Position numbers and translations under genes: made by a program. Below, piece after piece: positions 14,898 to 39,578 of a stretch of 43,157 bases of DNA. The DNA lies in sequence record MK373793.1; one strand, written 5' to 3'. Source of the DNA: Escherichia phage vB_EcoS_MM01. The number at the start of each line of letters is the position of its first letter. Position 1 is the first letter of the stretch. The notes under the pieces were generated by a model. That model saw only the letters and a program-made list of their open reading frames with translations, made no database searches and was not told where the DNA came from.

Positions 14898-15284
14898 ATG
14901 AAAGTAATCATCGCAATTATGGCAACCCTGTTACTTGCTGGTTGCAACACAGACAAGGTTAAGACACTTAATGTTGATCTGACCTCAAATGAATGCAAGA
15001 ACATCGTATACAGCGCGACTGTTAACAATGAATCATTTACTCGGCTTTCATTCAAGCACCCGGAACTTAAAGAAGCTGTTATGTATGTGTCCCACATTGA
15101 GTGCACGAAATCTGTTAACAATTTTACACGTGGTGTTGTAATTGAACGCACTACAACATTGGCAAAGGTATCAAAGCCTAGTGACGCCTCAATTGAGATG
15201 GTTTATACTAAGCTATACAATTTAGAAGGTTTCGCTAAGGAAGTTGGCGAGAAGCTGGCTTACTCACGCGTTGTTATAAAATAA
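14898..15284 (+). CDS. lipoprotein (moron in tail module)
   Basis: N-terminal signal peptide with lipobox LLAGC; AT-rich; own motif A/B unit upstream. Confidence 0.7.
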   Translation: MKVIIAIMATLLLAGCNTDKVKTLNVDLTSNECKNIVYSATVNNESFTRLSFKHPELKEAVMYVSHIECTKSVNNFTRGVVIERTTTLAKVSKPSDASIEMVYTKLYNLEGFAKEVGEKLAYSRVVIK

Positions 15285-37046: not shown

Positions 37047-37099
37047 CGATACCCACGAAAGTGGGTATTATTGTTTTATCGAAACGAGAGGAGATAGAA

Positions 37100-37588
37100 A
37101 TGAATTGGCATGAATTTTTCATATACGATAATGGAACTTTGTTTTGGAAGGTGAAGCCTTCAAGAAGTGTCTTGGTTGGCAGCGTTGCTGGTGGCTTGCA
37201 CTCCGCTGGATATGTTGACTTAAGGTTAAATAAAAAAGCATACTTGTGCCATAGAATTATTTGGGAGATGCATAACGGGATAATACCAGAAGGTATGGAG
37301 ATTGATCATATAAATCACATTAGGGATGACAACAGAATTGAGAATTTGCGACTTGTGAGCAGGCTAGAAAACCATAGAAACAGATCAAAACCAAAAAACA
37401 ATAAAAGCGGATTTACTGGAGTGAGGCAAACGAATAGTGGTAAGTGGACATCTTACATATGCTTAAGGGATGAAAATAACAAGAGGTATATAAAAACATT
37501 ATATTACGGAGATTCTTTTGATTGCGCTGTATCTGCAAGAGTCGAGGCTGTGAAAGGCTTTGGGTTTCATGATAATCACGGGGAGTAA
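37100..37588 (+). CDS. HNH endonuclease with AP2-like DNA-binding domain
   Basis: IDHINHIRDDNRIENLRLVSRLENHRN plus C-terminal GFTGVRQ...GKWTSYI. Confidence 0.65.
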   Translation: MNWHEFFIYDNGTLFWKVKPSRSVLVGSVAGGLHSAGYVDLRLNKKAYLCHRIIWEMHNGIIPEGMEIDHINHIRDDNRIENLRLVSRLENHRNRSKPKNNKSGFTGVRQTNSGKWTSYICLRDENNKRYIKTLYYGDSFDCAVSARVEAVKGFGFHDNHGE

Positions 37589-37594
37589 GAAGGA

Positions 37595-37858
37595 ATGACT
37601 AGAGAGAAATATAACAGAGAAATCATTGGCCTGAATGGCGAAACTGCAATCGTGGACGTATATCGAGTTCTTTCGGCTTTTAATGTGCAAAACCCAATGG
37701 CACAGCACGCAATCAAAAAGCTCCTTTGTGCAGGGTTAAGAGGCCACAAAGACTTAAACGAGGATGTTGATGACATTATCGATTCATTGCAGAAAATGAA
37801 AACCTTCTTAGGTCAGCAGCAAATAGCACAAATTGCTAAAGACAATAATCAAAAGTAA
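37595..37858 (+). CDS. hypothetical protein (87 aa)
   Basis: ORF track; embeds a motif A copy in its C-terminal codons. Confidence 0.45.
   Translation: MTREKYNREIIGLNGETAIVDVYRVLSAFNVQNPMAQHAIKKLLCAGLRGHKDLNEDVDDIIDSLQKMKTFLGQQQIAQIAKDNNQK
37822..37841 (+). repeat. junction motif A copy embedded in coding sequence (aatagcacaaattgctaaag)
   Basis: encodes QIAQIAK; motif B at 37873-37882 precedes next gene. Confidence 0.55.
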
Positions 37859-37892: not shown

Positions 37893-38096
37893 ATGAACGA
37901 GAGAGATAAAATGACTAACGTAACACTGAAATGCACATCAAACACTTCTAAGTCCCTGGATTTCGTAGTAGGAAATACTTATGAGGCAGTTGACCGCAAG
38001 GACTCGATGTTTGAGGTGATCAGCGAGAAAGGTTGGTGTTTGATTATGCCGCTGGATGGGCACTTCGTTAAGTTTGGGGTAACAAAACAGAAATAA
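37893..38096 (+). CDS. hypothetical protein (67 aa)
   Basis: ORF track. Confidence 0.45.
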   Translation: MNERDKMTNVTLKCTSNTSKSLDFVVGNTYEAVDRKDSMFEVISEKGWCLIMPLDGHFVKFGVTKQK

Positions 38097-38124
38097 TATA
38101 GCAATATAAAACATAGATATGCGT

Positions 38125-38153
38125 AGGGGTGGCCTTTTGGCTGCCCCTTTTTT
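38125..38153 (+). terminator. rho-independent terminator
   Basis: aggggtggcc-tttt-ggctgcccct imperfect hairpin plus T run. Confidence 0.5.
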
Positions 38154-38228
38154 CGTTCAAATCTTATGTAGTTAAGGTTAGTATTTAGACATTATGTTTA
38201 ACTATTGACAATTTAATGAGGTTTTATT

Positions 38229-38444
38229 ATGCGCGATGTAATTAACGCCGCTACTGCTCTTTCTGGCGGCTCTTCCTTGACTGGAGCTGCTACTGGGCAG
38301 CTTGTTGTTGCTGTTATTGGTCTTATTTTTCTTATTGCATTTGGTTTGTTTGGTGCCTGGCTTAAGTGGAAGGATAGTAAAGCAATTCGCCGCGCGCTAG
38401 AGTCTGGAGACTTGCAGACAGCGTTAAAGCTGAGAGCTAAGTAA
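38229..38444 (+). CDS. holin (possibly pinholin)
   Basis: 71 aa, Gly/Ala-rich hydrophobic segments, charged C-terminus, directly upstream of endolysin. Confidence 0.5.
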   Translation: MRDVINAATALSGGSSLTGAATGQLVVAVIGLIFLIAFGLFGAWLKWKDSKAIRRALESGDLQTALKLRAK

Positions 38445-38935
38445 TGAGTACGCAAAGGGTAGTGATAGGCGTACTAACTGCGGGTGCTATAGGTATAGCC
38501 GCCCCTCTTATCGAAAAGGTGGAGGGTGTAGAGTACAAGCCTTATAAGGACATCGCTGGAATTTGGACTGTTTGCAGTGGTATTACTGGTCCTGATGTCA
38601 TCATTGGTAAAACATATACCAAATCAGAGTGCAGGAAATTGTTAACCAAGCACATAGCAATACACGGGAAATATGTTGAAGATGCCATTAAAGTTCCAGT
38701 ACATCCAAACACTCGAGCGGCGCTAATTAGCTTTAGCTACAATGTTGGCGGCAATGCAATGAGGAAGTCTACAGCTGTAAGGCTAATTAACAACGGAAAG
38801 ATTGAGCAGGGGTGTAAGGCGCTGAGTCTTTGGAATAAAGCCACCATTAACGGCAAGAAGGTTGTCGTTAAGGGGCTTGTTAATCGCAGGAATGAGGAGA
38901 TCAAGCTATGCTTAAGCGGCTTGCAGGGTTATTGA
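38444..38935 (+). CDS. SAR endolysin (lysozyme, phage 21 R-like)
   Basis: N-terminal Gly/Ala-rich signal-anchor VVIGVLTAGAIGIAAPLI then EGVEYKPYKDIAGIWTVCSGITG with Glu/Asp/Thr catalytic triad. Confidence 0.8.
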   Translation: MSTQRVVIGVLTAGAIGIAAPLIEKVEGVEYKPYKDIAGIWTVCSGITGPDVIIGKTYTKSECRKLLTKHIAIHGKYVEDAIKVPVHPNTRAALISFSYNVGGNAMRKSTAVRLINNGKIEQGCKALSLWNKATINGKKVVVKGLVNRRNEEIKLCLSGLQGY

Positions 38936-39297
38936 TGTTCGCGGCCTTATCTGGATGCTCGGCAACTGATGCGCTGACCGGGCTAATTGGCAGTAAGCCA
39001 GAAGTCACGGCACAGGTTGGTGCGGCTAACAATAAGGTTGGCGTTGGTGCTTCAGTTAGTAGCGACTCTAGCAACTCATCAGAGGCCACAGTAAGAGATT
39101 CAAAGGTTGGTAGCCTTGATAGCTCTAGCGGTAAAAAGACCTCTGACAATTCGATTAAGGCATCTACAATCACTGCAGAAAAGATTGAAATTACCAATAA
39201 CGAATCATCCGCGCTTCCGTGGATTGGAACAGGAGCTATGGGTCTGCTGGTTTTAATTCTCCTGGCCTTAATCTTAAGACGTAAAAAAGCCTCCTAA
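38908..39297 (+). CDS. unimolecular spanin (lipoprotein with C-terminal TMD)
   Basis: lipobox LSGC at N-terminus and C-terminal TM helix GLLVLILLALIL followed by RRKKAS. Confidence 0.6.
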   Translation: MLKRLAGLLMFAALSGCSATDALTGLIGSKPEVTAQVGAANNKVGVGASVSSDSSNSSEATVRDSKVGSLDSSSGKKTSDNSIKASTITAEKIEITNNESSALPWIGTGAMGLLVLILLALILRRKKAS

Positions 39298-39311
39298 TGG
39301 AGGCTGTATTT
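39283..39311. terminator. bidirectional rho-independent terminator
   Basis: gcctcc-taat-ggaggc hairpin between A run and T run, separating convergent operons. Confidence 0.5.
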
Positions 39312-39578
39312 TTAGATTTTACCTTCCTGCATAAGACCTTCAACTAAAGTCATGCAATATCTTGCTGGCTTCCATTTCTCGAGCGCTTTCTCAGCACCAT
39401 TCTCAGTCTTGTATGATTTGATGCTTGGTACCTTAGTCATGCTAACTCCACCGCCATATCCATAATCGATCTCTTCAACAACCCAAAACAAACCATCAAT
39501 TTCTTTAACTAAGAGTCGTTTAAAAGCAAGGTTGCCAGTTTCTTCGTTTTTGTAGCGCTTCAGGTAACGTACAGTCAT
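39312..39578 (-). CDS. hypothetical protein (88 aa)
   Basis: internal ATG of track ORF 39312..39650, placed by motif A/B unit. Confidence 0.45.
   Translation of the reverse strand: MTVRYLKRYKNEETGNLAFKRLLVKEIDGLFWVVEEIDYGYGGGVSMTKVPSIKSYKTENGAEKALEKWKPARYCMTLVEGLMQEGKI

Follow-up and report, generated by a model that had tools for sequence, protein, structure and literature searches.

Organization of the lysis locus

We analyzed the lysis locus of Escherichia phage vB_EcoS_MM01 (MK373793.1), whose sequence of 43,157 nt is referred to here as the window. At positions 38229-39297 the locus carries genes for a holin, an endolysin and a spanin (Table 1). An earlier note on this DNA, made from the sequence alone, had proposed such a cassette, and the open reading frames (ORFs) indeed lie where it had placed them and are homologous to genes 13, 12 and 11 of phage T1. 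Judged from their protein sequences, the holin, endolysin and spanin are orthologues of T1 gp13, gp12 and gp11, respectively. The holin and endolysin genes share 1 nt (TAATG), the endolysin gene extends 28 nt into the spanin gene, and every ORF of the cassette has a Shine-Dalgarno-like motif (GAGG and GAGGAG; Table 1). Chance ORFs were ruled out by the E-values of the family matches, which are 4e-34 for the holin (PHROG 2877, 'holin'), 2e-37 and 9e-53 for the endolysin (PF00959, Phage_lysozyme, and PHROG 7, 'endolysin') and 2.7e-46 for the spanin (PHROG 1804, 'Rz-like spanin', covering 126 of the 129 residues).

The first 25 kb of the window match the Escherichia siphophages ECH1, ACG-M12, CEB_EC3a and Rtp with ~83-85% identity over 66-74% of the query (megablast), and on the basis of these matches the phage is placed as an Rtp/Braunvirinae-like member of the Drexlerviridae (T1-like siphophages). 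The gene order at the locus is common to T1 and eight other Drexlerviridae loci from several subfamilies. It runs from a DNA repair exonuclease, an HNH endonuclease and small ORFs through holin, endolysin, spanin and a terminator to a converging small gene and a helicase. The three genes form a conserved Drexlerviridae lysis module, an identification that is correct, already described for T1-like phages, and ordinary. Reportedly, the T1-type lysis cassette has been on record ever since the publication of the T1 genome and the surveys of spanins. The parts of the cassette can be named with confidence, and the value of doing so lies mostly in correct annotation.

Table 1. Features of the lysis locus and its flanks, with positions in the window.
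Feature	Position	Strand	Description
DUF7244 SH3-like small protein gene	37893-38096	+	Likely start ATG 37911 after GAGAGAG; Pfam PF23896, E 3e-26
Intrinsic terminator	38125-38148	+	10-bp stem with 7 GC pairs, then TTTTTT
Putative sigma-70-type promoter	38156-38184	+	-35-like TTCAAA, 17-nt spacer, -10-like TAGTAT (38179-38184)
ATTGACAA element	38204-38211	+	Leader; 17 nt ahead of the holin ATG
Holin gene	38229-38444	+	71 aa; T1 gp13 family (PF27028 Phage_T1_holin / PHROG 2877); ribosome-binding site GAGG 38218-38221
Endolysin gene	38444-38935	+	163 aa; predicted R21-type signal-anchor-release endolysin, GH24 lysozyme
Spanin gene	38908-39297	+	129 aa; T1 gp11 family, predicted unimolecular spanin; ribosome-binding site GAGGAG 38892-38897
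Bidirectional intrinsic terminator	39288-39305	both	Spanin stop codon in the loop; from terminator scan

Endolysin and spanin

The endolysin is 46% identical to T1 gp12 (E 5e-47). Its best solved relatives are RrrD of E. coli DLP12 (4ZPU, E 9e-37) and R of phage 21 (R21; 3HDE, E 2e-35), and with the catalytic domain of R21 it shares 48% identity in BLASTP. The E-8-D-5-T catalytic triad corresponds to E27/D36/T42 and is invariant in nine endolysin orthologues. At the N-terminus, MSTQR is followed by VVIGVLTAGAIGIAAPLI, and the 18 uncharged residues after R5 (V6-I23) make up a predicted signal-anchor-release (SAR) domain. For this 18-mer the mean Kyte-Doolittle (KD) hydropathy is 2.33, the Hessa sum is +0.98 and the share of Gly/Ala/Ser/Thr is 44%, close to the values of the SAR domains of R21 (KD 2.27, Hessa sum +0.26, 61% Gly/Ala/Ser/Thr) and P1 Lyz. 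The structure alignments begin at residue 4, with the SAR region included, and phmmer pairs residues 4-23 of the query with residues 6-25 of R21. The combination of an N-terminal SAR domain with a catalytic region like that of phage 21 R, as claimed in the earlier note, is thus supported by the sequence.

No cysteine precedes the catalytic Glu in any of the nine orthologues. A SAR domain free of Cys, together with Asp at the middle position of the triad, places the endolysin in the R21 type and not in the P1 Lyz type; a disulfide-caged enzyme of the latter type, with Cys in the triad, was rejected on the same grounds. With R21 and RrrD (3HDE, 3HDF, 4ZPU) the endolysin has in common the GH24 fold family, the spacing of the triad and a Cys-free, Gly/Ala-rich SAR domain, whereas its linker from the SAR domain to the catalytic Glu is 6 residues shorter. 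The holin and spanin that neighbour R21 in phage 21 are unrelated to those of the window.

The spanin is 38% identical to T1 gp11 (E 2e-23), the founding member of the unimolecular spanins, and 22 columns are invariant in an alignment of the spanins of nine phages. Its N-terminus, MLKRLAGLLMFAALSGC, carries a lipoprotein signal with the lipobox LSGC, Cys17 and a Ser at +2. The lipobox is identical to that of gp11 (PMC6139136). Since the residue at +2 is Ser, the protein has no Lol-avoidance (inner-membrane retention) signal. Cys17 is the only Cys of the protein, and unimolecular spanins (u-spanins) are as a rule without periplasmic cysteines (PMC6139136). The periplasmic domain (residues 18-104) is followed by a transmembrane domain (TMD) at residues 105-123, with a Hessa sum of -2.8 and a KD of 2.47, and by a basic RRKKAS tail. 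In an AlphaFold2 (AF2) model built from a nine-sequence alignment, the terminal helices are supported, with a short helix at 19-27 and a helix at 104-128 whose predicted local distance difference test (pLDDT) score averages 90 over residues 111-120; the overall mean pLDDT is 53.8. The lipobox and the C-terminal transmembrane helix together correspond to the u-spanin architecture recognized in the earlier note, and the comparison with T1 gp11-type spanins that it had suggested points the same way. A T1 gp11-type u-spanin is therefore the reading that these sequence features support.

The window holds one other strict-lipobox ORF (14898-15284, plus strand), situated in the tail-gene region. It encodes a 128-aa predicted lipoprotein beginning MKVIIAIMATLLLAGC, with Cys16, which shares 89% identity with Rtp34 of phage Rtp and was found in only 5 phage records. 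It belongs to no PHROG or Pfam family except for the lipid-attachment site motif.

Holin

The holin aligns with T1 gp13 over all 71 residues without gaps (51% identity, E 5e-24). The family PF27028 (Phage_T1_holin) is assigned to a protein that is 99% identical to it (P0001); the holin itself had no match in NCBIfam or in the Pfam set used, which was without the PF27028 model. By sequence relationship it is a member of the T1 holin family and not of the S21 family.

Residues 25-45 form one strong TMD (Hessa sum -3.3), and the C-terminal tail, with a net charge of +5, should be cytoplasmic. Ahead of the TMD lies a conserved segment at residues 4-23 (VINAATALSGGSSLTGAATG) with 74% Gly/Ala/Ser/Thr, a KD of 0.85 and a Hessa sum of +6.9. 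For TMD1 of the S21-68 pinholin the corresponding values are 63%, 0.64 and +6.4; the S21 sequence used is a 100% match to the phage 21 record OL657228. Positions A7, T9, G14, G23 and Q24 are invariant in 14 of 14 holin sequences, A8 is kept in 13 of them, and G13 is invariant across the nine phage loci, so that the N-terminal segment ranks among the best-conserved stretches of the T1-type holin. Like S21-68, which has 68 aa, the holin combines a weak first segment rich in Gly/Ala/Ser/Thr with a stronger TMD behind it and a basic tail at the C-terminus. Each of the two has a SAR endolysin as its partner, whose gene here adjoins and overlaps that of the holin. From these features we consider that the holin probably works like a pinholin. 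The earlier note had used the same word, and in so far as the label matches the published annotation of T1-like phages it stands; in view of the differences from S21 set out below it is kept as a prediction.

Alternative readings of the cassette

Each of the three proteins may be read differently. At the endolysin N-terminus, an ordinary cleavable Sec signal peptide would mean that an active soluble enzyme is secreted and controlled by other means, which we regard as very improbable. Small-x-small combinations do occur (for example G17-I18-A19, followed by A20), and the hydrophobicity of the region overlaps that of the real signal peptides of OmpA and MalE. However, the 18 uncharged residues run up to three residues before Glu27 with no polar c-region after them, the candidate sites all fall within the hydrophobic core, with no site conserved across the nine orthologues, and the SAR domain with which the region aligns is still present in the full-length crystal structure of R21 (3HDE). 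These three observations favour a signal anchor over a cleavable signal peptide, and an indirect, sequence-level form of the check for such a peptide that had been proposed in the earlier note found neither a c-region nor a conserved small-x-small site after the hydrophobic stretch. For the 129-aa protein, the alternative is that it represents half of a two-component spanin whose partner is embedded or lies elsewhere, and this is almost certainly not the case. A weak, sub-threshold NCBIfam match to 'spanin2' (E 4e-4; 20 bits, where the cut-off is 80) and the label 'Rz-like spanin' in many databases would fit it, but the protein itself has both an outer-membrane lipoprotein signal and an inner-membrane TMD. 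A six-frame scan from every start codon, which covers the check for a separate outer-membrane spanin (o-spanin) suggested earlier, found no other lipobox ORF overlapping 38229-39400 in any frame or on either strand, and an embedded o-spanin was rejected on this basis; the sole other lipoprotein candidate of the window belongs to the tail module. Furthermore, T1 gp11 alone complements the lambda RzRz1 defect (PMC6139136). On the other side, the AF2 model from nine sequences gave no confident fold for the periplasmic domain (pLDDT below 50 for residues 16-77, no strands) and so does not reproduce the beta-rich character reported for the family, in which a short helix is followed by beta elements.

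The holin is where the alternatives carry more weight. The cassette could be as described with a holin that is not a pinholin, either a single-TMD protein (N-out, C-in) or a canonical large-hole holin merely paired with a SAR endolysin, like P1 LydA/Lyz; we consider this possible, if rather unlikely. SAR endolysins are not known to need pinholins. Holin, endolysin and spanin types mix freely (Kongari et al., PMC6139136). Several properties of the holin speak for this alternative or against a pinholin. Only one strong TMD is found, and the 19-residue windows centred on the segment at the N-terminus all stay below a KD of 1.0. The putative TMD1 is joined to the TMD by two residues only (G23-Q24), whereas S21-68 has a periplasmic loop at this point. 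No homology to S21 was detected, with no alignment in BLASTP and an hhalign probability of 0.2%. A dual-start antiholin like that of S21 is absent from the gene, because the protein has no Met besides that of the start codon, and a TGA in the same frame (38217-38219) stands just upstream. The T1 GenBank record likewise notes a 'single transmembrane domain' for its holin. AF2 of the holin (14 sequences) gave a continuous helix at 2-58 and no hairpin, at low confidence (pLDDT 55-58, mean 69); as one long helix at a mean pLDDT of 69, this model does not inform the topology. On the other side, the N-terminal segment resembles S21 TMD1 in hydrophobicity and in its content of Gly/Ala/Ser/Thr and is strongly conserved, which would hardly be expected of a tail sitting passively in the periplasm. 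Holins of T1-like phages are moreover annotated as class II pinholins, both by specialist annotators (PMC4559738, PMC4319613, PMC11447400) and in further studies (PMC6139136, PMC13164509). In the accessible literature we found no experimental hole-size test for any T1-family holin, and the pinholin label of this abundant family (more than 800 phage records) rests on prediction. A single strong TMD that abuts, without a loop, a near-invariant 'AAT..GG...AATGQ' segment, together with the lack of an antiholin start and of S21 homology, raises the question whether the holin of the T1 family (PF27028) may form a class with a mechanism of its own and not be a true S21-like pinholin. It could then be a timer of the SAR type that evolved independently, or a holin that makes large holes. 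We think this unlikely; if it were true, a textbook pinholin label copied across hundreds of Drexlerviridae annotations would be wrong.

Proposed lysis route

Gene order, homology, motifs and hydrophobic topology features are observed directly at this locus, and we conclude with good confidence that the cassette most likely works by a pinholin, SAR endolysin and u-spanin route. The dynamics of lysis are inferred from the studied homologues R21 and T1 gp11. According to this model, the three genes would be transcribed between the two intrinsic terminators and be translationally coupled. A promoter scan, which counts against the model, detected nothing that reached its threshold in the stretch from the upstream terminator to the holin. 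The Sec system would export the endolysin by way of its weakly hydrophobic N-terminal SAR domain, and the exported enzyme would wait in an inactive state, tethered to the inner membrane. The spanin would be lipidated at Cys17 and, since its Ser at +2 gives no retention signal, the lipid anchor would be sorted to the outer membrane. Its C-terminal helix would remain in the inner membrane, so that a single polypeptide might span the periplasm through the murein mesh. Meanwhile the holin would accumulate, trigger and collapse the membrane potential; that it makes small holes, which for an S21-type pinholin are about 2 nm wide and keep folded endolysin from passing, is only predicted. Upon triggering, the SAR domain would exit the bilayer and the lysozyme would refold around E27/D36/T42 and degrade the murein. 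The spanin, thereby freed, may then fuse or disrupt both membranes.

Related cassettes and distribution

Cassettes of T1-like phages have been described as combining a pinholin, a SAR endolysin and a u-spanin (PMC6139136, PMC4559738, PMC4319613, PMC11447400, PMC13164509). Within the T1 gp11 family, all but two members have a pinholin and a SAR endolysin as cassette partners (Kongari et al., PMC6139136), and the exonuclease-holin-endolysin-spanin core is present in 508 of 522 Drexlerviridae (PMC13164509). Among the 50,697 phage records searched, homologues of the spanin were found in 1096 (~2%) and homologues of the holin in 819. The earlier note had called this type of lysis known but uncommon. 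It is known, while 'uncommon' applies only in a relative sense, given the ~2% of phage records with the spanin family.

The gp13-gp12-gp11 cassette of T1 has the same three families in the same order, with the same flanking synteny and the same terminator downstream; its holin also has 71 aa and its spanin lipobox is also LSGC. Identity to the window proteins is only 38-51%, however, and the endolysin and spanin genes of T1 overlap by 1 nt, compared with 28 nt in the window and in the phages ECH1 and JulesPiccard. T1 gp11 further has a Cys inside its TMD that is lacking in the window spanin.

The nearest GenBank relatives are ECH1, JulesPiccard, TR3 and Rtp (Braunvirinae/Rtp-like), in which the gene overlaps are the same. 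In deposited phages the spanin finds its closest matches at 88-90% (ECH1) and the endolysin at 73-75%; the holin, at 66-69% and with 69% as its best match, is noticeably more diverged than the other two genes. This uneven divergence of holin and endolysin against spanin hints that parts of the module were exchanged in a mosaic fashion. Only an unannotated 47-kb Logan contig, laid out in the same way at this locus, has a holin with 99% identity; a large-database search with the holin returned 6 proteins, including this near-identical copy.

Outside the Drexlerviridae, a u-spanin of the T1 gp11 family with ~50% identity to the window spanin is encoded in the Klebsiella podophage KPV811 (Drulisvirus, Autographiviridae; L010, 1801-2205). 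There the order is two small ORFs, spanin and lysozyme, which differs from the T1-type order. Judging from this different gene order in Klebsiella podophages, the spanin gene has passed from one phage family to another without the holin and endolysin of T1.

Transcription signals and upstream genes

The strong terminator at 38125-38148 closes the upstream transcription unit, and at the bidirectional one at 39288-39305 the cassette and the minus-strand unit that converges on it both end; the T1 record has an annotated terminator at the position equivalent to the latter. The layout of the 132-nt region before the holin (38097-38228) is kept in an alignment of nine Drexlerviridae. All nine have a hairpin with a T-run at the same place, with differing stem sequences (read by eye), and a TAnnAT -10-like hexamer that is invariant. 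In the window the putative promoter matches 8 of 12 positions, which is under the scan threshold, and a promoter for the cassette at this site is inferred from the motif and its conservation in the alignment. Further downstream, TTGAC occurs in 6 of the 9 aligned phages ~17-25 nt before the ATG, and ATTGACAA in the window and three other phages. The latter element is not repeated within the window beyond chance. No significant RNA fold was found in the holin leader (z +0.79), and RNAalifold found nothing in the intergenic alignment, because the terminators are out of register in it.

Upstream of the first terminator, which stands between it and the holin gene, lies the gene of the DUF7244 protein. 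T1 gp14 matches the same Pfam family (PF23896, E 9e-29). A module of exonuclease, SH3, holin, endolysin and spanin has been described, and it was recently suggested that the standalone SH3 protein assists lysis in Drexlerviridae as an auxiliary component (PMC13164509). The window protein has no signal peptide and no TMD. If the holin makes only pinholes, such a cytoplasmic SH3 protein would have no obvious route to the murein; without an export signal and with pinholes only, it is therefore an awkward fit with the hypothesis of a cell-wall-binding helper (PMC13164509).

Further upstream, an 87-aa ORF (37595-37858, plus strand) matches only the C-terminal ~75 positions of PHROG profiles that are 235-250 positions long (2452; 17613, 'ATPase'). 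Relatives have a 185-193-aa ATPase/dNMP-kinase (deoxynucleoside monophosphate kinase) gene at that place, often together with a polynucleotide kinase gene. In the window that space is filled by an HNH_3 endonuclease gene (37061-37588, plus strand), and the layout of the Logan contig (L011) is identical. The partial profile match suggests that the 87-aa ORF may be a truncated remnant beside a homing endonuclease.

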